Origin: Rubrivivax sp.
GTDB taxonomy: Bacteria > Pseudomonadota > Gammaproteobacteria > Burkholderiales > Burkholderiaceae_C
Direction of reading: 5' to 3'
Length of the DNA: 64,000 nt
Assembly (NCBI GenBank): GCA_022842305.1
Contig: JALHPY010000011.1
Location: 1,227-65,226 of the forward strand
This document shows positions 5,946 to 26,630 of this stretch, piece by piece. How positions within the stretch are numbered: position 1 is the stretch's first letter; each line of letters begins with the position of its first letter. The notes beneath the pieces are model-generated. The model was not told where the DNA came from. It saw nothing but the letters and a program-made list of their open reading frames with translations, and did no database searches. A program made the translations under genes and the position numbers.

Positions 5946-5949
5946 AGCG

Positions 5950-9971: not shown

Positions 9972-10011
9972 ACCAAAACAGAAGCGCCGCCGGGGTCTCC
10001 CCCGGCGGCGC
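9972..10011 (-). terminator. Rho-independent terminator after the ImcH-like gene
   Basis: 12-bp perfect stem GCGCCGCCGGGG/CCCCGGCGGCGC with a 4-nt loop. On the minus strand it is followed by TTCTGTTTTGG. Confidence 0.65.
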
Positions 10012-10048
10012 CTTGATCGGTGCAGCCGGCCCAGGCGCCGGCGCTGCT

Positions 10049-11449
10049 TCAGCCCTTCTTGGGCAGCTCGATCTTCGGGGCCTCGAGCGTGGTCTTCTGG
10101 GGCGGGTCGGCCAGCAGGTTCAGGCCCGGGAAGTCGCGGCCGTGGCAGGCCGGGTTGGAGCAGAAGCCGCCGCCCGACTTGCCGCGCTTGAGCGGCGCGC
10201 CGTGGCACTCTTCGCAGGACTCTTCCACGTCGTCGGCGTGCGTGCGCATGAAGTTGGGGCGCTGGTGGCCTTCGGGCTGTTGCTCGCCGGCCTTCGCGGG
10301 CAGCAGCGAGGGCACGCTGCCCTTGCCGTTTTCGCGCGTCACCTCGGGCATGCCGTGGCACAACGTGCACTGCAGCCGGATGACCTCGCCCGCTTCATTG
10401 AAGTGCTTGCCGTTGTGGCAGCGGAAGCAGCCGGGCGTGTCGGAGTGGCCGGTGTGGTTGGGGAAGCTCTTCCAGGAGAAGTCTTTCTCGTAGAAGGACG
10501 CGGCCAGCAGGATCTCGCGCATGGCGGTGTTGAACTTCAGCTCCAGCGGCTTGAGTTCGGCCGCGGTGGCGGCCTTGGTCGAGGCCTCGGCGATCAGGGC
10601 GTCGATCTTGGGGGCGCGCACTTCGGGCGGACCGGTGATCTCGGGCAGCTTGTCCACCAGGGCCACGGCGCGCGCCTTGGCGTCGGGCAGCTTGCGGTCG
10701 ATCTTGCCGGTGCGGATGTATTCGTCCACCACCGTGGCCGGGTTGGTGAAGGGGTGGCCCACCGAGTTGTGGCAGTCGTAGCAGGCCATGGCCCGCGCCG
10801 GCATCGCGGCGATCTGCGCGGGCGTGAACTTGGTCTCGGCGTCGGTGTAGGTGACCTTGGTGCCGTCGGGCTTGGTCACCTCGACCCAGGGGATCTCGCG
10901 GCGCTGGATGTCGGGCGAGACGAAGCGCACTTCGTTCTCGATGTGCCAGTGGATGCCCTTGGTGTACCCGGTGCGCACGGCGTCCATGCCGGTGTGCAGG
11001 ATGAGCTTGGTGCGCGACTCGCTGCTCTGGGTGTCGGTACCGTAGTGCACCTTGACGGCGATGCTGTCGTGGTGTTCGGCCGACGGGTGGTGGCAGCTCT
11101 CGCAGGCTTCGCGCGATGGCCGCAGCGTGCCCGATGCCAGCGGCCGGTCGTAGCCGACGATCATGCCCCACAGCTCCTTGGCATGCGTGGGCTTGAGCCC
11201 TATCAGCTTGAGCGTGGAGTTGCGCCCCATGTGGCACTCGACGCAGTTCACGCGGGCGTGCACGCCCTGCGTGTGCGCGGCGATCTCTTCGGGGTGCACG
11301 TTGTGGCACATCGCCGCGCAGAACGCGTTGCTGTTGCTGTACTCCCAGCCGGCGATGCCCCCTGCGCCCAGCAGCACCACGCCGATGAGGGCTGCGGCGA
11401 TGCCGGCCGTGCCGAGGACCAGCGTCTTGCTGCCAATCTGGATTCGCAT
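10049..11449 (-). CDS. Membrane-anchored NapC/NirT-type multihaem cytochrome c (ImcH-like, 7 CXXCH plus one CX4CH)
   Basis: ATG at 11449 lies 9 nt after an AGGAG. One N-terminal TM helix is followed immediately by CAAMCH and CVECH (NapC/NirT signature). Further motifs are CESCH, CYDCH, CFRCH, CTLCH, CEECH and CSNPACH. Confidence 0.75.
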   Translation of the reverse strand: MRIQIGSKTLVLGTAGIAAALIGVVLLGAGGIAGWEYSNSNAFCAAMCHNVHPEEIAAHTQGVHARVNCVECHMGRNSTLKLIGLKPTHAKELWGMIVGYDRPLASGTLRPSREACESCHHPSAEHHDSIAVKVHYGTDTQSSESRTKLILHTGMDAVRTGYTKGIHWHIENEVRFVSPDIQRREIPWVEVTKPDGTKVTYTDAETKFTPAQIAAMPARAMACYDCHNSVGHPFTNPATVVDEYIRTGKIDRKLPDAKARAVALVDKLPEITGPPEVRAPKIDALIAEASTKAATAAELKPLELKFNTAMREILLAASFYEKDFSWKSFPNHTGHSDTPGCFRCHNGKHFNEAGEVIRLQCTLCHGMPEVTRENGKGSVPSLLPAKAGEQQPEGHQRPNFMRTHADDVEESCEECHGAPLKRGKSGGGFCSNPACHGRDFPGLNLLADPPQKTTLEAPKIELPKKG

Positions 11450-11601
11450 GTCTGTCTGCTCCTGCAAGGAATAGCCGCGCGATTGTCCGCCACGGCCGCG
11501 CGGGCTTTCCTTGACGAAGCGCAGGCAAATGCGTCCCGGATCGGTCGCGCGCGGGTTTGCGCCCGGGTCTGGCGCGCGCGCGTTTGTAGGATGATGGCCC
11601 G

Positions 11602-12651
11602 ATGAAAACCGCTCGCAAGGGCTACGTCCGGCCGCTGGACATCAAGCACGGCTGCGTCGATTTGTCGCACGGCAGCGGCGGGCGCGCCATGGCGCAGCTG
11701 ATCGAAGAGCTGTTCTTGCGCGCCTTCGACAACGAATGGCTGCGCCAGGGCGACGACGGCGCGGTGCTGCCGCTGCCACCGGGGCGGCTGGTGATGGCCA
11801 CCGACAGCCACGTGGTGTCGCCGCTGTTCTTTCCGGGCGGCGACATCGGCTGCCTGGCGGTGCACGGCACCCTCAACGACGTGGCCATGAACGGCGCCAC
11901 GCCGCTGTACCTGGCGGCCAGCTTCATATTGGAAGAAGGCCTGGCGCTGGCCGACCTGGCGCGCATCGTCGAATCCATGGCCGCGGCATCGCGCCAGGCC
12001 GGCGTGCCCATCGTCACCGGCGACACCAAGGTGGTGGAGCGCGGCAAGGGCGACGGTGTGTTCATCACCACCACCGGCGTGGGCGTGGTGCCGGCGGGCG
12101 TGCAGGTCAGCGGCCGCGGCGCGCGCCCGGGCGACCGCATCCTGCTCAGCGGCACGCTGGGCGACCACGGCGTGGCCATCATGTCGCTGCGCGAGAACCT
12201 GAGCTTCCAGACCACGCTGCAATCGGACACCGCGGCGCTGCACGGCCTGGTGGCCGACATGCTGGCTGCCGTGCCCGGCATCCATTGCCTGCGCGACCCC
12301 ACGCGCGGCGGCCTGGCCACCACGCTGAACGAGCTGGCGGGCCAGTCGGGCTGCGGCATGCTCATCGACGAGGCCGCGCTGCCGCTGCGGCGCGAGGTCG
12401 AGGCGGCCTGCGAGTTCCTGGGCCTGGACCCGCTGTACGTGGCCAACGAAGGCAAGCTGGTGGCCATTTGCGCGGCCGACGACGCGCCGCGCCTGCTGGC
12501 CGCCATGCGCGCGCACCCGCTGGCGCGCGACGCGGCCGTCATCGGCGAGGTGCTAGCGGATGCGAACCACTTCGTGCAGATGCGCGCGCGCTTCGGCGGG
12601 CGGCGCATCGTCGACTGGCTCACGGGCGACCAGCTACCGCGCATCTGCTGA
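11602..12651 (+). CDS. hypE: Hydrogenase maturation protein HypE
   Basis: 349 aa, AIR-synthase-like fold sequence, with a C-terminal ...LPRIC ending in the conserved Cys. Confidence 0.93.
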   Translation: MKTARKGYVRPLDIKHGCVDLSHGSGGRAMAQLIEELFLRAFDNEWLRQGDDGAVLPLPPGRLVMATDSHVVSPLFFPGGDIGCLAVHGTLNDVAMNGATPLYLAASFILEEGLALADLARIVESMAAASRQAGVPIVTGDTKVVERGKGDGVFITTTGVGVVPAGVQVSGRGARPGDRILLSGTLGDHGVAIMSLRENLSFQTTLQSDTAALHGLVADMLAAVPGIHCLRDPTRGGLATTLNELAGQSGCGMLIDEAALPLRREVEAACEFLGLDPLYVANEGKLVAICAADDAPRLLAAMRAHPLARDAAVIGEVLADANHFVQMRARFGGRRIVDWLTGDQLPRIC

Positions 12652-12848: not shown

Positions 12849-13160
12849 ATGAAGCTCGCCCTTGCCATTGCCGCCGCCTTCGCCACCGTCTCGCTGGCCG
12901 GCCCTGCCCTTGCGGGCCCCGCGGAAGACATCGTCGCCAAGGAAAAGTGCAACAAGTGCCACACCGAGAAGACCACCAAGAAGGGCCCGTCCTGGGCCTC
13001 GATTGCGGTCAAGTACAAGGGCAAGCCCGAAGCCGCCGAGAAGATCTTCCTGCAGCTCAAGAACGGCGGGCAGGTCGGTGACGAGGAAGACCACAAGAAG
13101 GTCAAGGCCAGCGACGAAGACCTGAAGGCCATCGCCGCGCTGGTGCTGTCCGCGAAGTAA
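12849..13160 (+). CDS. Periplasmic monohaem class-I cytochrome c (c551-like fold, MtoD-like, no Met ligand)
   Basis: ATG at 12849 inside ORF 11736..13160. Signal peptide, a single CNKCH, then GPSWASIAVKY as in c551-type cytochromes. The mature protein contains no Met. DEEDH sits where the c551 PMPPN Met loop would align. Confidence 0.8.
   Translation: MKLALAIAAAFATVSLAGPALAGPAEDIVAKEKCNKCHTEKTTKKGPSWASIAVKYKGKPEAAEKIFLQLKNGGQVGDEEDHKKVKASDEDLKAIAALVLSAK
12945..12993 (+). repeat. 49-nt run identical to 13285..13333 (paralogous cytochrome genes)
   Basis: aagtgcaacaagtgccacaccgagaagaccaccaagaagggcccgtcct occurs in both tandem genes. Confidence 0.9.
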
Positions 13161-13188
13161 GCCTTTCCAAACGACTGGAGTGTCGACC

Positions 13189-13500
13189 ATGAAGCGTTCG
13201 TCCCTGATCATCGCCGCGGCATTTGCGCTGGCCTCTTCCACCGTGGCATTCGCCGGCCCTGCGGAGGACCTGATCGCCAAGGAGAAGTGCAACAAGTGCC
13301 ACACCGAGAAGACCACCAAGAAGGGCCCGTCCTACGCCGCGATAGCCAAGAAGTACGCTGGCGATGCAGCCGCGCCGGCCAAGCTGCTCAAGGGCCTCAA
13401 GGAAGGCGGCAAGATGGGTGACGAGGAAGACCACAAGAAGGTTCCCGGCAGCGAAGCCGACCTGAAGGCCGTCGTGGCCCTGATCCTCAGCGCCAAGTAA
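13189..13500 (+). CDS. Periplasmic monohaem class-I cytochrome c, tandem paralogue of 12849..13160
   Basis: ATG at 13189 (MKRSSLII...) after a GGAG. It shares the CNKCHTEKTTKKGPS and GDEEDHKKV blocks with its neighbour. Confidence 0.8.
   Translation: MKRSSLIIAAAFALASSTVAFAGPAEDLIAKEKCNKCHTEKTTKKGPSYAAIAKKYAGDAAAPAKLLKGLKEGGKMGDEEDHKKVPGSEADLKAVVALILSAK
13285..13333 (+). repeat. Second copy of the 49-nt identical run
   Basis: Identical to 12945..12993. Confidence 0.9.
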
Positions 13501-13549
13501 GCGCTCAACTGTTGCGCGGCGTCCCTGCGACGCTGTGTCGCACCCCCTC

Positions 13550-13581
13550 AAGGCCGTGGCTGCAAATGCAGCCACGGCCTT
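13550..13581 (+). terminator. Stem-loop (probable terminator) after the second monohaem cytochrome gene
   Basis: AAGGCCGTGGCTGC...GCAGCCACGGCCTT inverted repeat. The T-tract is weak. Confidence 0.45.
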
Positions 13582-13859
13582 GTTCCATCCAGGAAGGACA
13601 ACTACCCATCTGGGTATTTGCGCGCCGCCGCGGTGCATAAACGCACCGCCGCAGAGAAGCGCCGGACCTGACTTGCATCAATCTTTCAAGGTTTGCGATA
13701 CCTACACTCGGCCGGACCGATCGGTGACCGTGCCCTTCTTTCTGCATGAATGGCTGCGACATGGAATGCCCCTCGGCGTGCCGGTGCCATGGCCTGTGAT
13801 CAGGTCGTGACAGCCAGGCGAGAAAATTGTTTCGGTTCCACCCCTCGAGGAGGACATTG

Positions 13860-16712
13860 ATGGGCATGTTCAAGCATCGCAGCTGGCTGGCACTTCTTGC
13901 CACCGGCGTCATCGCGGCAGCGCTTTCCGGTTGCGGAGGCGACAGCGGCCCCGCAGGGCCAGCGGGCAGCCAGGGTCCGACCGGGCCCGCGGGCCCCCCG
14001 GGCCAGCAGGGTGATCCCGGATCGGCCGGCGGCGCCGGCACCACCAGCGTCGGCAGCAATGCGCTGACCAACACCGCTGCCATCGCCAGCAACGCCGCCG
14101 CCTGGCGAGACCTGCAGCCCACGGTGACGGTCAACAGCGTGACCATCGCCGGCAAGCCGGTCGTCAACTTCACGGTCACCGACGGCTTCGGCAAGCCGGT
14201 GGTCGGCCTGGGCAACACCACGCGCAGCGCCACGGCGCAGCCACAGGTGCCCGCCGCCTACCCCAATCTGGCCTTCTCGCTGGCCAAGCTGGTGCCCGCC
14301 AGCGCCGGCAGCCCCAGCAAGTGGGTCAGCTACATCGTCACCTCCGTGCCCAGCAACACGGCCGCAGCGGCGCCCCAGCGCCCGGGCACCGACAACACCG
14401 GCACGCTGGTCGACAACGGTGACGGCAGCTATCGCTACACCTTCTACCGGGACGTCACCACGATGGCGGCAGACGTCGCCGCGATGACGGTTGCCGCCCC
14501 CGCCAACAAGGCCGACCTGGGTGACCTGAGCTACAACCCCAACCTGACGCACCGCCTGACCATCCAGTTGTCGGGCAACGCCCCGGGCACCGGCACCAAC
14601 ACGCCCACCGCCACGGCTTCGCCCGTGGCCGCGGTGACGATGGCCGTGCCCTTCGATGCCGTGTACGACTTCATCCCCGCCGGCGGGGCGGTGCCGGCCG
14701 ACGCGAAACGCGTCATCGTCAACAACACCAAGTGCGAGGAATGCCACCGCAAGCTCGGCGGCATCCCGGGCGGCGACCCCGAGGCCAATGCCGCCGGCTT
14801 CCACGGCGGTGCGCGCAACAACGTCGACTACTGCGTGGTCTGCCACACCGAGCAGCGCAAGTACGGCCGCACCGAGGCCACCGCCACCACCAGCGGCGCG
14901 GTCAAGACCTTCACCTCCAGCACCAACGTGCTCGACGGCCGCTCCGTCGGCAACCTGCCCAATTTCATCCACAAGCTGCACCTGGGCGGCATGCTGGTCA
15001 ACAAGAACTACAACTACGGCGGCCTGGTGCTGAACGAGCCCACCTACCCGCAGGACATCCGCAACTGCACCAAGTGCCACGACGGCGACCCCGCCGCCAC
15101 GGCGCTGAATTCGCAGTCGGTCGCGGTCCCGGCCAGTTCGCCCCAGGGCGACAACTGGAAGCTCGTGCCCAGCACGCTGGCCTGCGGCTCCTGCCACGAC
15201 GGCATCAACTTCGCCACCGGCGCCGGTGTCACGCTGCGCGACGCCAATGCGGGCCTGACCAGCACGCCCAACGCCCACCCGGCCGGCGCCCAGCCCGATG
15301 ACTCGGCCTGCGCCACCTGCCACAGGCCTTCCGGCCTGCAGGACGTCGACCTGAACCACATCCCGGTGACGCCGCCGAACCCGGGCAATTCGCTGCTCGC
15401 GGGGCAGACCGACAACAACACCAACTCGGCCTGGATCGCGTCCAACACGGCGCGCCTGCCCGTCGGTGCCATCCGCGTCTCGCACGAGGTCAAGAGCGTC
15501 TCGCGCAATGCCGGCAAGAACCCGGTGATGGTGTTCCGCATGCTGCAGAACGGTGTGGTCACGCCGCTGGAAGACTTCGCCACCACGGCGGTCAACCCGG
15601 CCACCGGCCAGAAGGAGATCTGGACCAACTTTGCCGGCGCGCCCAGCGTTTACTTCGTGTACGCCGTGCCGCAGGACGGTATTACCGCCCCGGCCGACTT
15701 CAACGCCTCCGCCTCGAGCTACCTGCGCAGCCTTTGGAACGGCAGCGCCACGGGTAGCGCCACGGGCACGCTGGTGGCCGGCACGGGTGCCGACGCCGGC
15801 TTCTACGTGGCCACGCTGACCAACGTCGTCATCCCCGACAACGCCGTCATGCTGACGGGTGGCCTGGGCTACTCGTACAACGTCAGATCCGCGATGCCGC
15901 TGACGCAGACCAACCTGGCCGCCTTCCCGACGGCCGCGGCCACCAACGCGGGGGTGACCGCCGGCATGCCCAACGTTTCGGGCGGCCTGATCGTGATCAC
16001 GCCCAACGTGCAGCGCGTCGGCACCGGCTACACCGGCCGCCGCGCCATCGTCGAGGACAAGCGCTGCAACGCCTGCCACCAGGAACTGGGCACCTTCACC
16101 GAAGAAGCCTTCCACGGTGGCCAGCGCAACGATGGCACGACCTGCTCGTGGTGCCACACCCCCAACCGTGCCAGCAACGGCTGGTCGGCCGACTCCACCG
16201 CCTTCGTGCACGCGATCCACGCGTCGGCCAAGCGCACCGTGCCGTACAACTGGCATGCCCGCTCGACCACCGAGGGCTACTTCGAGATCACCTACCCGGG
16301 CGTGCTCAACCAGTGCGAAGCCTGCCACTTGCCCGGCACTTTCGACTTCAGCGCCACGGCCTCGGCCAATGCGGTGGAAAACCGCCAGCATCGCCTGGTG
16401 GCCAGCGGCACCGTCGCCGCGTCGATCACGAACTCGCCGTACATCACCACCGGTGTCGCCTACGGCAGCAACTTCAGCGTCGCAGCGGCCACCGGCCTGC
16501 CCACCGACGCTGCCGCGACCACGCTGGTCACGTCGCCGATCGCCACGGCCTGCTTCGCCTGCCATGACTCGAACGACGCGGTCACGCACTTCCGCGTGAA
16601 TGGCGGTTCGATCTACGCACAGCGCAGCGTGGCGCTGGCCAGCAACGAGACCTGTCTCGTGTGCCACGGCCCGGGCCGCATCGCGTCGATCGCTGCCTCG
16701 CACTCGAAGTAG
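13860..16712 (+). CDS. mtrC: MtrC/OmcA-family decahaem c-type cytochrome lipoprotein (extended, about 950 aa)
   Basis: ATG at 13860 after GAGGAGGA. Lipobox LSGC. Ten CXXCH in two pentahaem groups (CEECH, CVVCH, CTKCH, CGSCH, CATCH, then about 260 haem-free aa, then CNACH, CSWCH, CEACH, CFACH, CLVCH). This matches the four-domain MtrC/OmcA layout. Confidence 0.82.
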   Translation: MGMFKHRSWLALLATGVIAAALSGCGGDSGPAGPAGSQGPTGPAGPPGQQGDPGSAGGAGTTSVGSNALTNTAAIASNAAAWRDLQPTVTVNSVTIAGKPVVNFTVTDGFGKPVVGLGNTTRSATAQPQVPAAYPNLAFSLAKLVPASAGSPSKWVSYIVTSVPSNTAAAAPQRPGTDNTGTLVDNGDGSYRYTFYRDVTTMAADVAAMTVAAPANKADLGDLSYNPNLTHRLTIQLSGNAPGTGTNTPTATASPVAAVTMAVPFDAVYDFIPAGGAVPADAKRVIVNNTKCEECHRKLGGIPGGDPEANAAGFHGGARNNVDYCVVCHTEQRKYGRTEATATTSGAVKTFTSSTNVLDGRSVGNLPNFIHKLHLGGMLVNKNYNYGGLVLNEPTYPQDIRNCTKCHDGDPAATALNSQSVAVPASSPQGDNWKLVPSTLACGSCHDGINFATGAGVTLRDANAGLTSTPNAHPAGAQPDDSACATCHRPSGLQDVDLNHIPVTPPNPGNSLLAGQTDNNTNSAWIASNTARLPVGAIRVSHEVKSVSRNAGKNPVMVFRMLQNGVVTPLEDFATTAVNPATGQKEIWTNFAGAPSVYFVYAVPQDGITAPADFNASASSYLRSLWNGSATGSATGTLVAGTGADAGFYVATLTNVVIPDNAVMLTGGLGYSYNVRSAMPLTQTNLAAFPTAAATNAGVTAGMPNVSGGLIVITPNVQRVGTGYTGRRAIVEDKRCNACHQELGTFTEEAFHGGQRNDGTTCSWCHTPNRASNGWSADSTAFVHAIHASAKRTVPYNWHARSTTEGYFEITYPGVLNQCEACHLPGTFDFSATASANAVENRQHRLVASGTVAASITNSPYITTGVAYGSNFSVAAATGLPTDAAATTLVTSPIATACFACHDSNDAVTHFRVNGGSIYAQRSVALASNETCLVCHGPGRIASIAASHSK
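13947..14039 (+). repeat. Collagen-like Gly-X-Y coding repeat (10 triplets) directly after the lipobox Cys of MtrC
   Basis: Translation GPAGPAGSQGPTGPAGPPGQQGDPGSAGGAG. Confidence 0.9.
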
Positions 16713-16765
16713 CGTGAGACGGTGCGCGGGGGGCGGCACGTCCGGCCCCCGCCACACAGACCCAG

Positions 16766-16803
16766 GCAACCCGGACGCATGCTGACGTCCGGGTTGCTTT
16801 TTT
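16766..16803 (+). terminator. Strong rho-independent terminator between mtrC and the comEA-like/mtrA/mtrB genes
   Basis: 12-bp perfect stem GCAACCCGGACG/CGTCCGGGTTGC with an 8-nt loop, followed by TTTTTT. Confidence 0.8.
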
Positions 16804-16909
16804 GCATCAGGGTCCGGGTTTTCTCGGTCCGCCTCGATCGATGCTGTTCACGGCCCCGTGGGTCGGTGGCAGCATCCACAACGATGGGCACTTTCCCTTG
16901 CCACAAGCC

Positions 16910-17299
16910 ATGAACAAGCTCTCCATCGCAACGCTGCGGCTCGGCCGCGCCGCGCTCTTGCTGGCTGCTGCGGTGGCCCTGGGCGCCGCCCAGGCCGCGC
17001 CCGGCGCGTCGATCATGGCGCCCGCGGCCTCTGCGCCTGGCCTGCACGGCATGCCGCCGCCCAGGCAGAAGGCGCCGCCGGTGCCGGTGAAGCGCATCGA
17101 CATCAACAGCGCCAGCAAGGCCGAGCTGAAGAAGCTGCCGCACATCGACGACGCCACCGCCGAGCGCCTGATCAAGGGCCGGCCCTATCTCACCAAGACC
17201 GAACTGGTGAGCAAGAAGGTGCTGCCGCTGGGCCCCTACATCGCCATCAAGGACCGCGTCATCGCGCTGCAGAAGAAGCAGCCCAAGCCCAAGTCCTGA
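16910..17299 (+). CDS. Secreted ComEA-like helix-hairpin-helix protein
   Basis: ATG at 16910. Signal peptide, a Pro/Ala linker, then IDINSASKAELKKLPHIDDATAERLIKGRPY, a typical ComEA HhH DNA-binding motif. Confidence 0.7.
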   Translation: MNKLSIATLRLGRAALLLAAAVALGAAQAAPGASIMAPAASAPGLHGMPPPRQKAPPVPVKRIDINSASKAELKKLPHIDDATAERLIKGRPYLTKTELVSKKVLPLGPYIAIKDRVIALQKKQPKPKS

Positions 17300-17368
17300 G
17301 TGCCGGCACGACGCCTGCGCTCATCCCTTTTTCGATTTCCACGACCCCAGACCCACAGGCAGACATCC

Positions 17369-18298
17369 ATGAACATCACGAGACACCTGCTGCGTGCGCT
17401 GCTGCCGCTGGCCGCACTGGCCTGGCAGCCCCTGGCGCTGGCGCAGACCGGTTACACGACCGAGGGCGCCGACACCTGCCTCGAGTGTCACGACGACGAG
17501 AGCAGTACGTACTCGGCCAAGGCCTTGTTCAAGACGCCGCACGCGCACGCGGGCAACAAGCGCTCGCCTTTCGGTGCCGGCGGCCTGCAGTGCGAGGCCT
17601 GCCACGGCCCGGGTGCGGCCCACGCCAAGAACAAGAAGTCGGCCTCGATCAACACCTTCAAGGCCGACTCCAAGACCTCGCTGGCCGAGCGCAACCAGGT
17701 CTGCATGTCCTGCCACGAAGGCAGCACGCGCAGCGCCTGGCATGCCGGTGCGCACGAACGCGCCAACCTGTCCTGCACCGACTGCCACAAGATGCACCAG
17801 GAACGCGACCCGGTGCTCACCAAGGCGAGCGAGCCGCAGGTGTGCATGAGCTGCCACAAGCAGCAGCGCGCCGACTTCCAGAAGAGTTCGACCCACCCGC
17901 TGCGCCAGGGCAAGATGGCTTGCAGCGACTGCCACAACGCGCACGGCAGCAGTGCCCCGGCGATGCTGGTCAAGACCACCGTCAACCAGACCTGCACCAG
18001 CTGCCACGCCGAGAAGCGCGGCCCGGTGCTGTGGGAGCACGCGCCGGTGGCCGAGGACTGCGGCCTGTGCCACAGCCCGCACGGCTCGGTGCGCGCGGCC
18101 CTGCTCACCAAGAACCCGCCACTGCTGTGCCAGGAATGCCACAGCAGTGCCGGCCACCCCAGCGTGGCGCGCACGGCCGACGGCCTGCCCGGCGGCAGCG
18201 GTGGTGGCGCCATCTACGTCGTGGGCGGCAGTTGCAGCAACTGCCATTCGCAAGTGCACGGATCCAACCACCCCGCGGGGGCGAAGCTGATGCGCTGA
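17369..18298 (+). CDS. mtrA: MtrA/DmsE/MtoA-family periplasmic decahaem cytochrome c
   Basis: ATG at 17369, signal peptide, ten CXXCH in about 310 aa (CLECH, CEACH, CMSCH, CTDCH, CMSCH, CSDCH, CTSCH, CGLCH, CQECH, CSNCH). Confidence 0.9.
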   Translation: MNITRHLLRALLPLAALAWQPLALAQTGYTTEGADTCLECHDDESSTYSAKALFKTPHAHAGNKRSPFGAGGLQCEACHGPGAAHAKNKKSASINTFKADSKTSLAERNQVCMSCHEGSTRSAWHAGAHERANLSCTDCHKMHQERDPVLTKASEPQVCMSCHKQQRADFQKSSTHPLRQGKMACSDCHNAHGSSAPAMLVKTTVNQTCTSCHAEKRGPVLWEHAPVAEDCGLCHSPHGSVRAALLTKNPPLLCQECHSSAGHPSVARTADGLPGGSGGGAIYVVGGSCSNCHSQVHGSNHPAGAKLMR

Positions 18299-18359
18299 AC
18301 GGTGCGGCGCGCGCTCCCTGCCGCGCCGGTTCCCAACCGCCGAACACCACCGAACACGG

Positions 18360-20459
18360 ATGCGAATCATGAGAATCTACAGCTCCCTTCTTCAACTGGC
18401 CGCCCTGGGCGCCCTGTCTGCCGCTGGCGCCGCCGTTGCGGCCGAAGTCGACACCTCGGCCTGGAAATGCAAGACCTGCCCTTACCCCAAGGGCACACAG
18501 GTCAGCGTCGAGGCCGGCATCGGCACCGTCACCGATGAGTCGTCCAGGTTCGGCGACTACACCGGCCTGCAGCGCAAGGAGGCCCACGCCATCCTGGGCG
18601 GCACGGTCAGCCACCGCAGCGGCAGCGGCTACTACGCCGAGCTGAGCGCGGCCGATCTGGGCCTGGACACGCGCAGCCTCTCGGCAGTCAGCGGCCTGGA
18701 AGGCCTCTACTCGCTGCGCCTGGGCTACAGCGAGCTGCCGCGCCACCTGACGGACGGTGCGCAATCGCCCTTCCTGGGCAACGGCGGCGCCGACCTCACG
18801 CTGCCCGCGGGCGCCGGCTTTCCCACCGGCAGCACCGCCACCATGCCCTTGGCCACCACGCTGCAGCCGCTGGACGTGGGCTACAAGCGCCAACGCTTCG
18901 ATCTGGCTGGCAAACTGACGCTGGGCGACAACTGGACCTGGCGCGTGAGCGTGCGCCGCGACGTGCGCGACGGCAGCCAGCCCACCTACGGTTCGTTCTT
19001 TGCCAGCGCCGCGCAACTGGCGGCGCCATTGGACCAGACCACCGACTGGATCGAGGTCTCGGCCTCGTACGTGGCGCGCGGCATGCACGCCACGCTGGCC
19101 TACCAGCTGTCGGAGTTCAAGAACGGCGCCGCCGCGCTGAACTGGGACAACCCCTTCGTGCCCGTGGTGCCCGGTGCCACGCGCGGCCAGCTGGCGCTGG
19201 CCCCCGACAACCAGCTGCAGCAGTTCAGCGGCTCGGCCGGCTACGAGATCACGCCCACCATCAAGGCCAGCGCCGATTTCGCCGTGGGCCGCCTGACGCA
19301 GGACGCCGCACTGCTGCAGCCCACGCTCAACGGCAACCTCACGGTGCCGGCACTGGCCGCACAGACGCTGGACGGCGAGGTCGAGACCTTCAACGGCAGT
19401 GTGCGCCTCACGGCCGCGCCCATGGAAGGCCTGCGCCTGAACGCCAGCTATGCGCGCGACGTGCGCGACAACAACAGCGCCGTGCAAAGCTGGCCGGTGA
19501 TCGACGCCGACCTCTTCGTGCAGGCGCAGCAGCGCAGCAACTCGCCGTTCGGCTTCACGCAAGACCGCTACAAGCTGGTGGCCGACTACCGCGGACCCGA
19601 CACCTGGAAGTTCTCGGGCGGGGCCGAGCAGGACAACAAGAAGCGCACCTATGCCGAGGTGGTGGAGACGCGCGAGACCACCCTGTGGGGCCGCGTGGCC
19701 GTGCAGCCGATGGATGAGCTGACGCTGTCGGCCAGGCTGGCGCACGCCGAGCGCGACCACTCGGGCTACGGCCAGGCGGTGTGGTTCGGCGCGCCCCAGA
19801 ACCCGCTGCTGCGCAAGTTCAACCTGGCCGAGCGCAGCCGCGACAGCCTGGGCCTGCGCGCCGATTGGGCGCTGTCCGAGACGCTGGCCCTGGGCCTGGC
19901 CCTGAACTACGCTGACGACGCCTATGGCGAGTCCCTCATCGGCCTGCAATCGGCGCGCAGCTTCGGGGCTGCGGTCGACCTGTCCTGGGCGCTGAGCGAG
20001 CAGACACGCATCACCGCCTTCGTGCACAACGAGAACCTGCGCTCGCGCCAGCGCGGCAGCGAGGCCTTTGCGGCGCCCGACTGGACGGCCCGCGCCAAGG
20101 ACCAGTTCGACGTGCTGGGCGTGGGCGTCAAGCACGCGGCCATCGTGGACAAGCTGGACATCGGCGCCGACCTGTCGGTGTCGCGTTCGCGCAGCGAGAT
20201 CTCGATGGCCAACGTCGTTGCCGAGACCGGTTTCCCCGTGGCCAAGACGGCGCAGGACACGCTGCGCCTGTACGGCAGCTACAAGCTGCAGGACAACCTG
20301 TGGCTCAACGCCAGCTGGTGGTACGAACGCTACGACGCCCAGGACTGGCGCCTGGACGGGGTGGCCCCGGCCACGGTGCAGAACCTGCTGAGCTTCGGCC
20401 AGCAGGCGCCGCAGTACAGCGTGAACGTGCTGCGCGTCTCGGTGCGCTACCGCTTCTAG
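18360..20459 (+). CDS. mtrB: MtrB/PioB-family decahaem-associated outer-membrane beta-barrel
   Basis: 699 aa with a signal peptide and an N-terminal CKTC (CXXC) motif. Alternating beta-strand pattern, terminal aromatic residues (...VSVRYRF). It lies directly downstream of mtrA. An alternative ATG exists at 18369. Confidence 0.85.
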   Translation: MRIMRIYSSLLQLAALGALSAAGAAVAAEVDTSAWKCKTCPYPKGTQVSVEAGIGTVTDESSRFGDYTGLQRKEAHAILGGTVSHRSGSGYYAELSAADLGLDTRSLSAVSGLEGLYSLRLGYSELPRHLTDGAQSPFLGNGGADLTLPAGAGFPTGSTATMPLATTLQPLDVGYKRQRFDLAGKLTLGDNWTWRVSVRRDVRDGSQPTYGSFFASAAQLAAPLDQTTDWIEVSASYVARGMHATLAYQLSEFKNGAAALNWDNPFVPVVPGATRGQLALAPDNQLQQFSGSAGYEITPTIKASADFAVGRLTQDAALLQPTLNGNLTVPALAAQTLDGEVETFNGSVRLTAAPMEGLRLNASYARDVRDNNSAVQSWPVIDADLFVQAQQRSNSPFGFTQDRYKLVADYRGPDTWKFSGGAEQDNKKRTYAEVVETRETTLWGRVAVQPMDELTLSARLAHAERDHSGYGQAVWFGAPQNPLLRKFNLAERSRDSLGLRADWALSETLALGLALNYADDAYGESLIGLQSARSFGAAVDLSWALSEQTRITAFVHNENLRSRQRGSEAFAAPDWTARAKDQFDVLGVGVKHAAIVDKLDIGADLSVSRSRSEISMANVVAETGFPVAKTAQDTLRLYGSYKLQDNLWLNASWWYERYDAQDWRLDGVAPATVQNLLSFGQQAPQYSVNVLRVSVRYRF

Positions 20460-20747: not shown

Positions 20748-21113
20748 ATGAATGCCTACGTCATCTTCCTGATCTACCTGCTCGCCATCCTGGGCTTCGT
20801 GGCCCTGACGCTGGCGCTCAACGCCGCCCTGGGCCCCAAGCCCACGTCCAACGCGATCAAGCTCGAGCCTTTCGAATGCGGTGCCACGCCGGTGGGCAGC
20901 ATCAACGTCAAGGCGGTGCCCATCAAGTACTACGCGGTGGCCATCATCTTCATCCTGTTCGACCTGGAAACCATCTTCCTCATCATCTGGGCCCTGGGCG
21001 CGCAGCCCCTCACCGGCTTCATGCTCTTCACCTTCTTCCTGTTCATGGCGCTGTTGGTGCTGATCGTGCTGTACGTCTACAAGGCACGCATCATCGAGAT
21101 GGTGACGGAGTAA
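20748..21113 (+). CDS. nuoA: NADH:quinone oxidoreductase subunit A
   Basis: 121 aa, 3 TM, PFECG...KYYAVAIIFILFDLE motif. Confidence 0.9.
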   Translation: MNAYVIFLIYLLAILGFVALTLALNAALGPKPTSNAIKLEPFECGATPVGSINVKAVPIKYYAVAIIFILFDLETIFLIIWALGAQPLTGFMLFTFFLFMALLVLIVLYVYKARIIEMVTE

Positions 21114-21119
21114 CCCGCG

Positions 21120-21638
21120 ATGTACGCACGCACCATCCCCATCGTCCCGGCCGACCACACCAAGGACGGCGCCTTCGAGTACATCGCCACGCGCAAGGAT
21201 GAGCTCATCGGCTGGGCGCGCAAGTTCTCGATATTCCCCTACCCCTTCGTCACCGCCTGCTGCGCGATGGAGTTCATGGCCGTCAGCTCCAGCCCCTACG
21301 ACACCGACCGCTTCGGTGCCGCGCTGCCCCGCTTCAGCCCGCGTCAGGCCGATCTGCTGATGGTGGTGGGCACGGTCACGCACAAGCAGGCGCCCATCCT
21401 GCTGAAGGTCTGGGAACAGATGTGCGAACCCAAGTGGGTGATGGCCTTCGGCGTGTGCGCCACCAGCGGCGGCTTCTACCAGAACTATGCCGCGCTGCCA
21501 GGCATAGACCGGGTGATCCCGGTCGACATCTACATCCCCGGCTGCCCGCCGCGGCCCGAGATGGTCATCGACGGGATCATGCAGCTGCAGGAAAAGATCG
21601 CGACCTCGCGCCATCCCATCATCAACAAGGACTTCTGA
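21120..21638 (+). CDS. nuoB: NADH:quinone oxidoreductase subunit B (N2 cluster)
   Basis: CCAMEF...GVCATSGG...PGCPPRPE cysteine pattern. Confidence 0.93.
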   Translation: MYARTIPIVPADHTKDGAFEYIATRKDELIGWARKFSIFPYPFVTACCAMEFMAVSSSPYDTDRFGAALPRFSPRQADLLMVVGTVTHKQAPILLKVWEQMCEPKWVMAFGVCATSGGFYQNYAALPGIDRVIPVDIYIPGCPPRPEMVIDGIMQLQEKIATSRHPIINKDF

Positions 21639-21640
21639 TC

Positions 21641-22114
21641 GTGGCGTCGCGCATCGTCGAACAATTGCAAGAGAAGCTGCTGCCGGCCGCCGGCCCGGGC
21701 GCGCTGGTGCACGGCGCCTTCGTGCTGCAGCTTGATCCGACTGAGCTGCTGGCCACCGTCAAGCGCCTGCGCGACGAGTTCGGCTTCGACATGTTCCTGG
21801 ACGTGACCGCGGTCGACTGGCCCGGCCAGACGCCGCGCTTCGAGGTCGTGTACCACCTGTACTCCAGCGCCGACCACCTGCGCGTGCGCCTGAAGACGCG
21901 CGTGCCCGAGGCCGCGCCCGAGCTCGATTCGCTGGTGCCGTTGTACGGCTCGGCCGGCTACATGGAACGCGAGTGCCACGACATGTACGGCATCCGCTTC
22001 AACGGCAACGGCGACCTGCGCCCCATCCTGCTGTACGAGGGCTTCGTCGGCCATCCGCTGCGCAAGGACTACCCCAAGCAGCAAGAGCAGCCGCTCGTGC
22101 CCTACCGGAACTGA
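21641..22114 (+). CDS. nuoC: NADH:quinone oxidoreductase subunit C (short, about 157 aa)
   Basis: GTG at 21641, 2 nt after the nuoB stop. Contains ...RFEVVYHLYS...ERECHDMYGIRF... Confidence 0.88.
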   Translation: MASRIVEQLQEKLLPAAGPGALVHGAFVLQLDPTELLATVKRLRDEFGFDMFLDVTAVDWPGQTPRFEVVYHLYSSADHLRVRLKTRVPEAAPELDSLVPLYGSAGYMERECHDMYGIRFNGNGDLRPILLYEGFVGHPLRKDYPKQQEQPLVPYRN

Positions 22115-23355
22115 TGGGAAGCCCCGTGGACCGCCCGATCGCCAACCCCGTCCGCTCGATCTTCACCACGCCGCTGCAGCCAGACAGCGTCGTCGTCAAC
22201 ATCGGCCCTTCGCACCCGGCCACGCACGGCACGGTGCAGATCATCGCCGAGCTCGACGGCGAACGCGTGCTGCGCAGCGACGTGCACTGCGGCTACCTGC
22301 ACCGCGGCTTCGAGAAGGAGTGCGAGGACCACACCTGGCACAACCTGATCCCGTATGTGGACCGCCTGAACTACGTGTCGGCGCTGGTGAATGACTTCGC
22401 CTACTGCGACGCGGTCGAGCAGCTGATGGGCGTGGAGATCACGCCGCGCTGCAAGTACCTGCGCACGCTGCTGTCCGAGTATTCGCGCCTGGTCGACCAC
22501 GTCACCTGCATCGCCGCCGGCTTGATGGAGCTGGGCGCGATGACCGCCTTCCTGTACCTGGTGATGGTCCGGGACTACATGTACGAGCACCTGGCGGCGC
22601 TCACCGGTGCGCGCGTCACCTACACCTATGGCCGCATCGGCGGCCTGGCGCGCGACCTGCCCGACGGCTGGCTGCAGCGCCTGGAAGAGATCTTCGTCCA
22701 GTACGAGGACTTCATCTCGCGCGTGCACGCGCTGGTCGACCGCAACCGCATCTTCATCGACCGCATGCGCGGCGTCGGCACCCTCAGCAAGGCCGACGCG
22801 CTGAGCTACGGCTGCACCGGCCCCATGCTGCGCAGCACCGGCCTGGCGCTGGACCTGCGCAAGGACACGCCTTACCTGGCCTACGCCGAGATCGACTTCG
22901 ACGTGCCCGTGGGCATACAGGGCGACAACTACGACCGCTACTTCGTGCGCATGCGCGAGATGGACGAATCGGTCTACATGATGCGCCAGCTGTCCGAGAT
23001 CCTGCGCTCCGACAAGGGCGCGGGCCCACTGAACGTGGCCGACCGGCGCTGCAGCTTCCCCGACAAGCCGTTGGTCTATACCGAGATCGAGTCGCTCATC
23101 AACCACTTCAAGCTCGTCATGGATGGCCCCGTGGTCCCTGCCGGCGACATCTACGTCGCGCACGAGGCGCCCAACGGCGAACTCGGCTTCTACCTGGTGA
23201 GCACCGGCACCGGCACGCCGCACAAGGTGCACGTGCGTTCGCCCAGCTTCGTGCACATGGGCGTGGCCAGCCTGATGATGGACGGCGGCCAGGTGGCCGA
23301 CATCGTCCCCACCTTCGGCTCGATCAACATGATCGGTGGGGAGTGCGATCGATGA
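22114..23355 (+). CDS. nuoD: NADH:quinone oxidoreductase subunit D
   Basis: ATG at 22114 overlaps the nuoC stop. GPSHPATHG, GYLHRGFEK and DRLNYVS motifs; ends ...GGECDR. Confidence 0.93.
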   Translation: MGSPVDRPIANPVRSIFTTPLQPDSVVVNIGPSHPATHGTVQIIAELDGERVLRSDVHCGYLHRGFEKECEDHTWHNLIPYVDRLNYVSALVNDFAYCDAVEQLMGVEITPRCKYLRTLLSEYSRLVDHVTCIAAGLMELGAMTAFLYLVMVRDYMYEHLAALTGARVTYTYGRIGGLARDLPDGWLQRLEEIFVQYEDFISRVHALVDRNRIFIDRMRGVGTLSKADALSYGCTGPMLRSTGLALDLRKDTPYLAYAEIDFDVPVGIQGDNYDRYFVRMREMDESVYMMRQLSEILRSDKGAGPLNVADRRCSFPDKPLVYTEIESLINHFKLVMDGPVVPAGDIYVAHEAPNGELGFYLVSTGTGTPHKVHVRSPSFVHMGVASLMMDGGQVADIVPTFGSINMIGGECDR

Positions 23356-23819
23356 AGCATCTCATTGCCGAATTCGACGCGATGAAGCGTCGCTACCCGC
23401 CGGGCACCGAGTCCTCGCTGGTCACCCCCTGCCTGCACCGCATCCAGGATGACCGCGGCTTCATCGCCGACGAAGACATTGCCGAGCTCACCGCCTACCT
23501 GGGTGTGCAGCGCGTGCAGGTCGAAGAGGTCATCGCCCACTACTCGATGTTCCGGCGCAAGCCCATCGGCGAGAAGCACGTGCAGGTGTGCCGCAACGTC
23601 AGCTGCTCGATGCGCGGTGCCGAGGGCGTGATCGACCACCTGTGCAAGCGCCTGGGCGTGCAGCCCGGGCAGACCACGGCCGACGGCCGTATCACGCTGG
23701 GCACGGTCGAGTGCCTGGGCTCCTGCGGCACTGCGCCGGTGGTGATGGTCAATGAGGCCTATCACGAGAACATGGACGCCGCCCGCCTGGACGCCCTGAT
23801 CGAGGAGTTGCGCAAGTGA
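23352..23819 (+). CDS. nuoE: NADH:quinone oxidoreductase subunit E (2Fe-2S)
   Basis: ATGA overlap with nuoD. CRNVSC...CLGSCGTAP cysteine pattern. Confidence 0.9.
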   Translation: MKHLIAEFDAMKRRYPPGTESSLVTPCLHRIQDDRGFIADEDIAELTAYLGVQRVQVEEVIAHYSMFRRKPIGEKHVQVCRNVSCSMRGAEGVIDHLCKRLGVQPGQTTADGRITLGTVECLGSCGTAPVVMVNEAYHENMDAARLDALIEELRK

Positions 23820-25169
23820 TCCCGCAACCGATCCCGCAAGCCATCACGCAACCCCCCGGCCGCAAGCTCATCATGAGCTTCCCGGTCACCGCCACCTCGC
23901 ACCTGCTGGCCGACTACCGCGCCCGCGGCGGCTACGGCACGCTGACCAAGGTGCTGCGCGAGATGCGCCCGGAGCAGGTGACCAAGGAAGTCGCTGCCTC
24001 GGGCATCCTGGGCCACGGCGGCGCCGCCTTCCCCGCCGGCCGCAAGTGGGGCGTGATCAAGCTCAACGACGGCCAGCCGCACTACCTGTGCGCCAACGCC
24101 GACGAGGGCGAGCCCGGCACCTTCAAGGACCGCTGGATCCTCGAACACGCGCCGCACCTGCTGATCGAGTCGATGCTCATCTCGGGCTACGCGCTGCAGG
24201 TGCGCAACGCCTTCGTCTACATCCGCGGCGAGTTCGACCTGCCCTACCGCCGCCTGGCTGCGGCCGTCGAGGAAGCCTACGCCGCCGGCCTGCTGGGCGA
24301 AAGCGTCATGGGCACCGCGCACGCCATGGACCTGGTGGTCTACCGCGGCGCCGGCAGCTACGTGTGCGGCGAAGCCTCGGCGCTGATCACCTCGATCGAA
24401 GGCCGCAAGGGCTACCCGCGCAACCGCCCGCCGCGTTTGACGGTGAAGGGCCTGTACCAGAAGCCCACGGTCATCAACAACGTCGAGACCCTGTCCAACG
24501 TGACCCCCATCGTGGCCATGGGCGGCGAGGTCTTCAAGCAGATCGGCGCGCCCAAGAGCCCGGGCACGCAGTTGGTGTCGATCTCCGGCCACATCCAGCG
24601 GCCGGGCGTGTACGAACTCGAGTACGGCTACCCGCTGGCCAAGTTCATCTATGAAGACTGCGGCGGCGGCCTGGGCGGCCGTGCCGTCAAGTGCATCGTG
24701 CCCGGCGGCATCTCCACCAAGGTGCTGACGGCAGCCGAACTGCACGGTGTCACCTACGACCACGCCTCGCTCACCAAGGCCGGCTCGGGCGTGGGCTCGG
24801 GCGGCATGATCGTCATCGGCGAAGGCACCTGCATGCCCAGGCTGCTGCAGGTCATGCTGCGCTTTTATCACCACGAAAGCTGCGGCCAGTGCACGCCCTG
24901 CCGCGAAGGCATGGGCTGGATGCACCGCATCATCGACCGCATCGTCGCCGGCCAGGGCCAGCGCGGCGACATCGAGCAGCTGCAGCGCATCTCCATCGCC
25001 AACGACGGCACCACCATCTGCGGCATGGGCGACGCCGCCGGCTACGCCACGCTCGGCATCATCGCCAAGTACCGCGACGAGTTCGAGTACCTCATCGAGC
25101 ACAAGCGTTCGCGCTGCGACGGCGTGCTGGACATCACCGCGCCCACCGTCAGCCCCAAGGTTCCCGCCC

Positions 25170-25177: not shown

Positions 25178-26626
<1,449 letters not shown>

Positions 26627-26630
<4 letters not shown>

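Follow-up and report, generated by a model that had tools for sequence, protein, structure and literature searches.

The mtrCAB genes have been surveyed across Bacteria by Baker et al. 2022 (PMC8805035), who found mtoC and mtoD beside mtrCAB almost exclusively in betaproteobacterial clusters of Group 4 and in one Group 3 betaproteobacterium. In Niveibacterium sp. COAC-50 the order is mtrC-HhH-mtrAB, a Group-4-type MtrC being combined with Group-3-leaning MtrAB, and a conserved helix-hairpin-helix (HhH) gene follows the Group-4-type mtrC both there and in Aquincola sp. S2 (PMC8805035). Here we describe a related locus from Rubrivivax sp., located in 64,000 nucleotides of contig JALHPY010000011.1 (assembly GCA_022842305.1, positions 1,227 to 65,226 of the forward strand; hereafter the window, with positions counted from its first letter). 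Six genes on the plus strand at 12849-20459 encode two MtoD-like cytochromes, MtrC, an HhH protein, MtrA and MtrB (Table 1), and judging from their sequences they almost certainly constitute an Mtr-type conduit.

The window shares the mtrC-HhH-mtrA-mtrB order with Niveibacterium sp. COAC-50, and its MtrC is 59-63% identical to those of Niveibacterium and Aquincola sp. S2. Unlike the clusters of these two organisms, it is wedged between the hyp and nuo operons and accompanied by CbcL-type and ImcH-type genes. The text of Baker et al. (PMC8805035) makes no mention of ImcH, CbcL, hydrogenase, NADH (including NADH dehydrogenase) or collagen. Likewise, in the literature searched we found no description of cbcL and imcH between hypD and hypE, of nuo after mtrB, of the FNR-type boxes, or of the Gly-X-Y tether reported below.

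The original prediction for this stretch, made from the sequence alone, had implied that its mixture of Fe(III)-reducer and Fe(II)-oxidiser hallmarks was new. The 2022 survey, however, already includes mtrCAB clusters of Betaproteobacteria that have mtoC and mtoD beside them. Such mixed hallmarks are the published norm for the class, because Baker et al. describe the same neighbours, the HhH gene and the same gene order; the core of the locus adds one genome to a catalogued class and is therefore of little weight alone. The cluster type is thus already on record in Burkholderiales, and the locus is a fairly ordinary addition with a few undescribed accessories. Its modest added value lies in the conserved linkage of imcH and cbcL inside a hyp operon, the adjacency of nuo with shared boxes, the MtrC tether, and the fold assignment of the HhH protein. 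The prediction also left the direction of electron flow open, which was fair: Baker et al. state that direction is not inferable, and the question that the locus raises has already been posed in that work (PMC8805035).

Considered as a whole, the locus most likely encodes a complete, cytochrome-only and reversible route that would link the quinone pool with the cell surface and be expressed under oxygen limitation. The best overall explanation, to which we assign a probability of roughly 0.55, is an Mtr-type chain in which export is weakly favoured as the main role. The identities of the genes, their motifs, the synteny and the discordance between modules are the established part of this account; the localisation of the proteins, the order of the partners and FNR-family control at low oxygen are what we infer from them. 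In the proposed order, electrons would move reversibly between the quinone pool, ImcH-type and/or CbcL/MtoC-type proteins, MtoD-type proteins, MtrA in MtrB, and MtrC. The ImcH-type and CbcL/MtoC-type proteins would be two inner-membrane modules exchanging electrons with quinol/quinone, and two bis-His MtoD-type carriers would cross the periplasm. MtrA would be threaded through the MtrB barrel, with a lipid-anchored MtrC on the outer face held by the Gly-X-Y tether, and a putatively secreted HhH protein is encoded together with mtrAB. All predicted steps, from quinone pool to surface, lie within ~13 kb.

Table 1. Features of the Rubrivivax sp. window discussed in the text (positions in the window; L001 and L003 are related loci used for comparison).
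Feature	Position	Strand	Description
hypA, hypB, hypF, (hypC), hypD	2392..7334	+	Hydrogenase maturation context
FNR/CRP-family-type box TTGTCCAACATCAA	7400..7413		2 mismatches; hypD-cbcL intergenic; counterpart at L001 3857
CbcL/MtoC/MtrH-type gene	7501..9624	+	Signal peptide, 11 CXXCH, C-terminal cytochrome-b-like domain
Terminator-like hairpin	9982..10013	-	14 bp stem, 12 GC pairs, just after imcH stop
ImcH-type gene	10049..11452	-	467 aa; N-terminal transmembrane helix, CX3CH, six CXXCH, C-terminal CX4CH
hypE	11602..12651	+	TIGR02124, 463 bits; split from hypD by two cytochrome genes
FNR-type box TTGACCAGGATCAA	12690..12703		1 mismatch; ~150 bp upstream of mtoD1; identical box at L001 8867
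mtoD1	12849..13160	+	MtoD-like, predicted periplasmic monohaem class-I cytochrome c, 103 aa
mtoD2	13180..13500	+	MtoD-like, predicted periplasmic monohaem cytochrome c, 106 aa
FNR-type box CTGACTTGCATCAA	13668..13681		2 mismatches; ~190 bp upstream of mtrC; counterparts at L001 9814 and L003 9050
mtrC	13860..16712	+	OmcA/MtrC-family decahaem, predicted surface lipoprotein, 950 aa; HMM, motifs, model fold
Collagen-like Gly-X-Y run after lipobox Cys25	13929..14045	+	MtrC residues 24-62; HMM, model
Terminator-like hairpin	16764..16799	+	14 bp stem and T-run, 52 bp after mtrC stop
HhH gene	16910..17299	+	Predicted secreted ComEA/PsbU-fold protein, 129 aa, between mtrC and mtrA
mtrA	17369..18298	+	Predicted periplasmic, porin-inserted decahaem, 309 aa, 10 CXXCH
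mtrB	18360..20459	+	Predicted outer-membrane beta-barrel sheath, 699 aa
MtrB CXXC (CKTC, residues 37-40)	18468..18479	+	The sole two cysteines of MtrB
FNR-type box TTGATCTGAAGCAA	20562..20575		1 mismatch; mtrB-nuoA intergenic; counterparts at L001 16855 and L003 15805
nuoA-N (NADH:quinone oxidoreductase)	20748..34150	+	Apparently complete operon directly 3' of mtrB

The MtrCAB core and its small cytochromes

Reading frames were picked by third-position GC in the window, which is ~69% GC, and every frame of the cluster is intact with its full complement of haem motifs. MtrC, MtrA and MtrB each score far above the cut-off of a curated family hidden Markov model (HMM): 425.4 bits against 209.3 for TIGR03507, 300.5 against 192.2 for TIGR03508 (the MtrA/DmsE family), and 440.3 against 240 for TIGR03509 (MtrB/PioB), with MtrB also matching PF11854 at 504 bits. 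Everything that the original prediction had listed, namely a lipoprotein decahaem with 5+5 haems, a ten-haem MtrA, a barrel of about 700 aa with an N-terminal CXXC, and two upstream class-I monohaem cytochromes, was recovered in place, but its inventory had passed over the HhH gene and the two larger cytochrome genes further upstream. It had also allowed that the three proteins might fall outside the Mtr/Mto/Pio families. On the contrary, MtrA and MtrB are placed within them by HMM scores and by alignments to 6R2Q, and MtrC by HMM and Foldseek. In MtoAB/PioAB systems there is no adjacent mtrC (PMC8805035); here mtrC is present in the cluster, upstream of mtrA and mtrB. A dimethyl sulfoxide reductase-type (DmsEF) reading, raised by the "DmsE family" match of MtrA, was discarded, as the window lacks DmsAB-type genes and MtrC is present.

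Residues 94-948 of MtrC span positions 2-672 of the 672 in TIGR03507 and include two PF22113 (MtrC/MtrF domain II/IV) domains. The CXXCH motifs start at residues 292, 325, 403, 442 and 484, and again at 736, 762, 819, 898 and 932, forming two pentahaem groups (residues 292-488 and 736-936). The lipobox, LSGC with Cys25, is kept in ~31 of 35 homologues, and the protein is predicted to be exposed at the cell surface. By sequence, its best match in the PDB is MtrF (E=6.5e-16). An AlphaFold2 model, used for family-level fold matching only, places two beta-rich domains at ~60-275 and ~505-725, before and between the haem groups. When this model was searched with Foldseek against the PDB, the only matches at E<=1e-3 were OmcA, MtrC, UndA and MtrF (E from 2e-20 to 6e-13), with target-normalised template-modelling (TM) scores of 0.48-0.58. 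The window protein thus shares the four-domain decahaem fold family of the Shewanella proteins (S. oneidensis MtrC, 4LM8, and OmcA, 4LMH) but differs from them in length (950 aa versus ~650-700), in its weak sequence similarity, in the absence of a domain-III cysteine pair and in the presence of a collagen-like tether. Apart from Cys25 and the 20 that bind haem, it has no cysteines. With no non-haem pair to spare, it would therefore be unable to form the Shewanella-type domain-III disulfide, a conserved trait of the Shewanella MtrC-family proteins that does not define the family.

Directly behind the lipobox, residues 24-62 of MtrC hold ten or more Gly-X-Y triplets in succession. Collagen-family HMMs match this run weakly, and runs of 5-14 triplets occur in ~30 of the 35 homologues. 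The underlying DNA has only a weak 9-bp array and no clean tandem repeat. In the model the segment is disordered, with a predicted local distance difference test (pLDDT) score below 50. We predict an extended or disordered tether and do not claim a triple helix. No description of collagen-like sequence in MtrC was found in the literature searched.

In the HhH protein, a signal peptide is followed by a linker rich in Ala and Pro, a single HhH domain (PF12836) and a basic tail. The domain was modelled by AlphaFold2 with pLDDT ~90, and its best structural match is the ComEA-related 2DUY (TM score 0.77, root-mean-square deviation 1.8 Å), followed by PsbU of photosystem II. PsbU is a non-DNA-binding extrinsic subunit of a membrane redox complex, photosystem II. 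The gene is kept 3' of the same mtrC type in 12 loci. Going by the model, a role in DNA binding or a PsbU-like structural role is possible.

MtrA carries a signal peptide and aligns over its full length with chain A of the S. baltica structure 6R2Q (residues 24-308, E=6.4e-85); MtrB aligns with chain B over residues 25-698 (E=2.9e-86). S. baltica was the only solved MtrAB reference used. These full-length alignments, at E ~1e-85, include the CXXC of MtrB, whose CKTC is aligned with CKGC of the S. baltica protein, although overall the two MtrBs are just 29% identical. Identity to Ramlibacter-type MtrBs is lower still (23-26%). In a neighbour-joining tree of MtrB, the window grouped with seven related loci (L001, L003-L007 and L016) and was joined by S. 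baltica, while L009, L010, L012, L013, L015 and L017 formed a separate, Ramlibacter-type clade. The CXXC is kept in L001, L003-L007 and L016, that is, in every member of the window clade, and is missing from all Ramlibacter-type MtrBs with a readable N-terminus. The motif had been put forward as a hallmark of reducers; it is certainly present, but it is better read as a marker of lineage than of function. From these comparisons, the MtrAB of the window appears to be a Shewanella-like, CXXC-bearing module that leans toward Group 3 of Baker et al., the group number being taken from the Niveibacterium and Aquincola relatives.

Both MtoD-like proteins begin with a signal peptide, contain one CNKCH, match Pfam Cytochrom_C at 28 bits (cut-off 21.3), and are ~65% identical to one another. 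Their best single-domain match in the PDB is MtoD of Sideroxydans lithotrophicus (4XXL), with ~37% identity and E values of 5.6e-8 for mtoD1 and 2.3e-9 for mtoD2. In 4XXL the haem is ligated by His47 and His95, with a non-proline-rich loop, which is unusual in class I (PMC4412085). His95 of that protein (EEEH95K) is aligned with the His of DEEDHKK in both paralogues (DEEDHKKV in paralogue 1). Bis-His ligation in both is the simplest reading of the sequences, because each protein has two His only, the sole His outside CXXCH is the one aligned with His95, and the mature part of paralogue 1 has no Met. The Mto system of S. lithotrophicus ES-1 is similar in having an MtoD-type bis-His monohaem cytochrome beside an MtrA/MtrB-family pair in a betaproteobacterial host. 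It differs in lacking MtrC, in using the tetrahaem NapC/NirT protein ImoA as its inner-membrane partner, and in its working shuttle, the His/Met cytochrome PmcA. In Shewanella, the partners are STC/FccA and CymA, as opposed to MtoD-, CbcL- and ImcH-type proteins in the window.

A genome scan with MtrC returned 21 loci, nearly all of them from Burkholderiales or Rhodocyclales (related loci and contigs compared with the window are numbered L001 onward). The closest was that of Rubrivivax sp. A210 (L001, NZ_CAJGBN010000071.1), which is syntenic from hypF to nuoD in the order hypF-hypD-cbcL-hypE ... mtoD-mtoD-mtrC-HhH-mtrA-mtrB-nuoA-B-D, with identities of 68% for MtrC, 83% for MtrA, 65% for MtrB and 91-95% for Nuo, and with FNR-type boxes at matching places. 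It differs in having a HypX-like gene after hypE (judged by the domain content of its translation, with Pfam matches obtained on the L025 counterpart) and in having no imcH at the locus; a 70%-identical ImcH homologue is encoded elsewhere as a monocistronic gene (L022). Two loci from metagenome-assembled genomes (MAGs), L005 and L016, resemble the window in MtrA (59% identity), MtrB (47-48%), the MtrB CXXC, and an mtoD next to the cluster. They have one mtoD, downstream and on the opposite strand, whereas the window has two in tandem, upstream and on the same strand. Compared with Ramlibacter L012 and L013, MtrC of the window is 51-53% identical, MtrA 38-39% and MtrB 24-26%. The cluster is thus, on its sequences, an MtrC type with HhH (Niveibacterium/Aquincola-like) joined to a Shewanella-like, CXXC-bearing MtrAB. 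In L014 (9860-18394), from a MAG labelled "uncultured delta proteobacterium", we observed an MtrC homologue 54% identical to that of the window, with ImcH-like (28% identical) and CbcL-like (45%) genes ~2-4 kb downstream of mtrC. No MtrA or MtrB match was found in the 10 kb downstream of that mtrC homologue.

Predicted inner-membrane cytochromes within the hyp operon

In the window, the hyp operon (6219-12651) is broken between hypD and hypE by a cbcL-type gene and, in the opposite orientation, an imcH-type gene. A210, with cbcL alone, and three metagenome contigs, L023-L025, show the operon broken at this place too. The window contains no hydrogenase structural genes; in L023 a gene for a NiFe large subunit lies upstream of hypA.

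The first of the two genes encodes, by its architecture, a CbcL/MtoC/MtrH-type protein of 707 aa. Members of this family have an N-terminal periplasmic multihaem c domain (3-23 CXXCH) and a C-terminal domain of ~6 transmembrane helices with conserved His for b haems; MtoC and MtrH, whose genes often cluster with mtrAB/mtoAB, are homologues of CbcL (Zhong and Shi 2018, PMC6295460). Six transmembrane helices are predicted at residues 388-702 of the window protein, with His within or near them. It has Pfam multihaem domains and a match to Ni_hydr_CYTB that falls under the cut-off (26.4 versus 30.1 bits, E=7e-6). Like Geobacter CbcL, which has nine haem motifs, it combines a multihaem c domain with a b-type domain of six transmembrane helices. 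Its 11 haem motifs compare with 9 in the betaproteobacterial MtoC/MtrH homologues (Table S2, PMC6295460). It is 84% identical to the product of the syntenic gene in A210 and 35-45% identical to those of genes beside mtrC in L012 and L013 (Ramlibacter) and L014 (the MAG). The Burkholderiales Fe(III) reducer Rhodoferax (Albidoferax) ferrireducens (two cymA, mtrH, mtrABC) likewise has an MtoC/MtrH gene within its mtr cluster, but it has CymA-type tetrahaems and no ImcH has been reported there.

The second gene encodes an ImcH-type protein with a transmembrane helix at residues 11-29, a CX3CH at 45, and CXXCH at 70, 117, 224, 342, 362 and 413. It matches PF03264 at 31.5 bits. The CX3CH by the transmembrane helix and the six CXXCH are shared with ImcH of G. 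sulfurreducens (GSU3259), and the spacing of the motifs is nearly identical, 25/47/107/118/20/51 in the window protein versus 24/49/106/117/20/38 in GSU3259 (Table S3, PMC6295460). G. sulfurreducens ImcH has three transmembrane helices where the window protein has one, and the latter adds a CX4CH. Searches of NCBIfam yielded no matching CbcL or ImcH model and only weak NapC/NrfH/DmsE matches; membership in both families rests on the architectures described in PMC6295460 because no curated models matched.

The 2018 survey found no mtrAB/mtoAB adjacent to imcH, its table of ImcH proteins is without Betaproteobacteria, and no organism was found to combine the CymA-, CbcL- and ImcH-type families (PMC6295460). 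In the window, by contrast, imcH is situated 1.4 kb upstream of mtoD-mtrC. The literature searched contained no report that connects ImcH with Mtr clusters of Burkholderiales. Contigs L023-L025 have the order hypD-cbcL-imcH(opposite strand)-hypE-hypX-mtoD-mtoD and then an mtrC that is more divergent, and their ImcH-type homologues in this hyp/cbcL/mtoD context are 76-82% identical to that of the window. Because these contigs share the hypD-cbcL-imcH-hypE-hypX-mtoD-mtoD backbone, the linkage of imcH to the mtr locus reads as a conserved trait of a small clade and not as an accident of a single genome. Between hypD and cbcL, L023 (14314-16139) and L025 (14346-16315) also carry a CymA-size NapC/NirT gene (201 aa) and two small cytochromes c. 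With this extra NapC/NirT gene, CymA-, CbcL- and ImcH-type genes therefore occur in one locus. The CymA/ImoA-like partner that the original prediction had counted in the set could not be located in the window: its cluster has no CymA/ImoA-size tetrahaem and no His/Met small cytochrome, and the candidate inner-membrane partners are the CbcL/MtoC-type and ImcH-type proteins. There are no further cytochrome c genes elsewhere in the window.

The presence of two inner-membrane modules and of two MtoD paralogues that are ~65% identical is consistent with a truly bidirectional conduit, which would export electrons under anoxia (with H2 or organic donors) and take them up under microoxic or illuminated conditions, the ImcH-/CbcL-type modules and the MtoD paralogues covering different potential windows. 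ImcH and CbcL of Geobacter do serve separate potential windows (PMC6295460), and reversibility of Mtr has been documented in the laboratory. We nevertheless regard this alternative as improbable, as paralogy or redundancy often comes without functional partition.

Downstream genes, shared boxes and composition

The nuo operon follows mtrB directly. Family matches identify subunits A, B, D, F, G, H, L, M and N, and C, E, I, J and K were placed by the position of their open reading frames only. This adjacency is kept in A210 and in a Caldimonas MAG, that is, in three genomes with the window. NuoG (25174-26630) appears short, ~485 aa, with N-terminal Fe-S domains and Molybdop_Fe4S4, and has no Pfam match to the large molybdopterin-like C-terminal domain. 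Downstream of nuo we also found hemE. The region 37237-53955 contains a cNMP-binding (Crp/Fnr-like) regulator (37237-37926), a pair resembling Nfn/glutamate synthase small subunit, and then further redox genes: 2-oxoacid:ferredoxin oxidoreductase (kor) alpha/beta, a TRAP C4-dicarboxylate transporter (dctPQM) and an sdh/frd CAB operon. The oxidoreductase beta subunit is followed at 43311-45520 (stop-to-stop 42827-45520) by a long open frame of high GC3 (the GC content of third codon positions, here 0.87) that has no Pfam match. Baker et al. report frdABCD near Group 4 mtrCAB clusters (PMC8805035).

Candidate FNR-type boxes, searched as TTGAT-N4-ATCAA with up to 2 mismatches, number 25 in the window against 4.4 expected (~six times), and 10 of the 25 fall in non-coding DNA, which makes up 16% of the window. 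Besides the four boxes of Table 1, others are found at 37810-37906, 46754, 50137 and 54207, upstream of the nfn-like/crp-like genes, dctP and the frd operon. A210 has positional counterparts of the cbcL, mtoD1, mtrC and nuoA boxes, and the Caldimonas MAG has those of mtrC and nuoA. The mtr locus is flanked by the hyp and nuo operons, and candidate boxes are found in all three. They suggest common control by an FNR/CRP-family regulator and hence expression under low oxygen.

As to transcript structure, the hairpins 3' of imcH and mtrC are strong, and the one 3' of mtrC may split mtoD-mtoD-mtrC from HhH-mtrA-mtrB. No equivalent was detected in A210, and an operon boundary at this hairpin is therefore not claimed. 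A sigma-70 promoter scan of 7000-21200 found none, which is uninformative at 69% GC, and an Rfam scan of the whole window gave no matches.

The composition of the cluster, its conservation and its surroundings bear on whether the locus could be a silent or decaying, horizontally acquired island with no present physiological role. mtrCAB is known to be mobile (PMC8805035), and the cytochrome genes do interrupt the hyp operon. Against this, the frames are intact with every haem motif present, genomes whose proteins are 55-85% identical share the gene order and the boxes, and expression of mtrAB together with an mtrF-like gene has been reported for a Rubrivivax MAG in sediment (PMC11748539). The comparison of codon usage and GC3 with flanking genes that the original prediction had proposed gave no compositional sign of horizontal transfer: the GC3 of the mtr genes (0.91-0.93) is the same as that of the flanking hyp and nuo genes, indicating real coding frames in a high-GC genome, and the codon usage equals that of the flanks. 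We consider a silent island very improbable indeed. Recent horizontal transfer as such was rejected on the same grounds, since per-gene GC, GC3 and codon-usage distance of mtr, cbcL and imcH are indistinguishable from those of hyp, nuo and frd, a test that donors of similar composition would escape. A tRNA scan of the window found none, and there is therefore no tRNA-associated integration site.

Direction of electron flow and implications

For the conduit as a reversible device, we tentatively and weakly favour outward flow, that is, metal respiration, as the main native direction. Electrons from NADH or H2 would reach quinol and pass via ImcH/CbcL to MtoD, MtrA and MtrC, ending on Fe(III)/Mn(IV) oxides, humics or electrodes in oxygen-limited growth. 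Outward flow is favoured because a surface MtrC is present, which is absent from the cited MtoAB/PioAB oxidiser systems (PMC8805035); because ImcH has so far been implicated in quinol oxidation only (PMC6295460); because the MtrAB module is Shewanella-like with the CXXC, whose Cys42 is needed for Fe(III) reduction by S. oneidensis MtrB (Wee et al., as cited in PMC12175506); because in Shewanella MtoD can relay to MtrA the electrons that it receives from CymA (PMC13390432); and because the box-bearing neighbours hyp, nuo, frd, dct and kor resemble an oxygen-limited respiratory set.

A number of points weigh against this account. Some concern the components themselves. The AlphaFold model of MtrC, built with 35 homologues, has a mean pLDDT of 59.8, its two beta-rich domains being good and its haem domains poor. 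The ImcH-type protein shows one hydrophobic helix from any plausible start, where three would be expected, and it is called ImcH-type by motif architecture, not by alignment to GSU3259; single-TM (transmembrane) ImcH homologues are listed from Anaerolinea and Intrasporangium (PMC6295460). The boxes are consensus matches, and the enrichment test is weakened by the AT-richer composition of intergenic DNA. Nor would the boxes discriminate direction, because the pio operon of R. palustris, which is oxidative, is likewise under FNR/FixK-type control. Others concern direction more generally: it is not decided by sequence alone, and MtoC-type proteins are found in oxidisers and reducers alike (PMC6295460). 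Among mtrCAB-bearing Burkholderiales there are oxidisers or depositors of Mn(II)/Fe(II), and Ramlibacter lithotrophicus expresses mtrCAB on Mn(II) (PMC8805035). Finally, S. lithotrophicus MtoD has a potential of +155 mV (PMC4412085, PMC13390432) and is now held, in a 2026 proposal, to feed a terminal oxidase (PMC13390432); such a potential and role would fit inward flow better than export via a low-potential MtrA.

These last points bring in the alternative of electron uptake as the main role, in which MtrC would draw electrons from outside the cell by oxidising Fe(II), Mn(II), a reduced mineral or a cathode. From MtrA, electrons would pass to a high-potential MtoD and on to a terminal oxidase/bc1 or photosystem, or via the MtoC-type protein to the quinone pool, and the adjacent Nuo would run in reverse, making NADH. 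Besides the properties of MtoD and the habits of related Burkholderiales, it is consistent with uptake that both small cytochromes are of the bis-His MtoD type, that mtoC and mtoD are hallmarks of Mto clusters in Fe(II) oxidisers, that the nuo adjacency is kept in three genomes, and that the lineage is Rubrivivax-like, a genus that includes phototrophs. The presence of MtrC, the Shewanella-like CXXC type of the MtrAB module and the ImcH-type protein argue the other way, as they do for export. The box-bearing neighbours frd, dct, kor and hyp resemble anaerobic respiration or fermentation rather than lithoautotrophy, and there are no cbb, cyc2 or oxidase genes within the window. Uptake as the main role is, on this evidence, somewhat unlikely.

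A more ambitious proposal can also be framed: that the mtr genes belong to a larger, conserved, FNR-family-controlled island, hyp-[cbcL, imcH]-hypE-mtoD-mtoD-mtrC-HhH-mtrAB-nuo, in a Rubrivivax-lineage clade, which would couple the oxidation of H2 and/or NADH to extracellular metal respiration, with an ImcH-MtrCAB linkage, a Gly-X-Y-stalked MtrC, and the HhH protein as subunit or extracellular-DNA anchor. Taken with all of its parts this is unlikely. If true, three undescribed features would come with it: for the first time an ImcH-type quinol oxidase would be linked genetically to MtrCAB, MtrC would be borne on a collagen-like Gly-X-Y stalk, and an HhH protein of PsbU/ComEA fold would serve the outer-membrane complex either as an extrinsic structural subunit or as its anchor to extracellular DNA.

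The locus brings both Geobacter-type inner-membrane modules beside a Shewanella-type outer-membrane module, and it could reveal whether Mtr conduits receive electrons from ImcH-type proteins. In a relative of Rubrivivax that can be cultivated, these features would allow direct tests of which way electrons flow and which partners are used. The conserved tether and the HhH protein offer cheap, unexplored targets for learning how the larger MtrC proteins sit on the cell surface.

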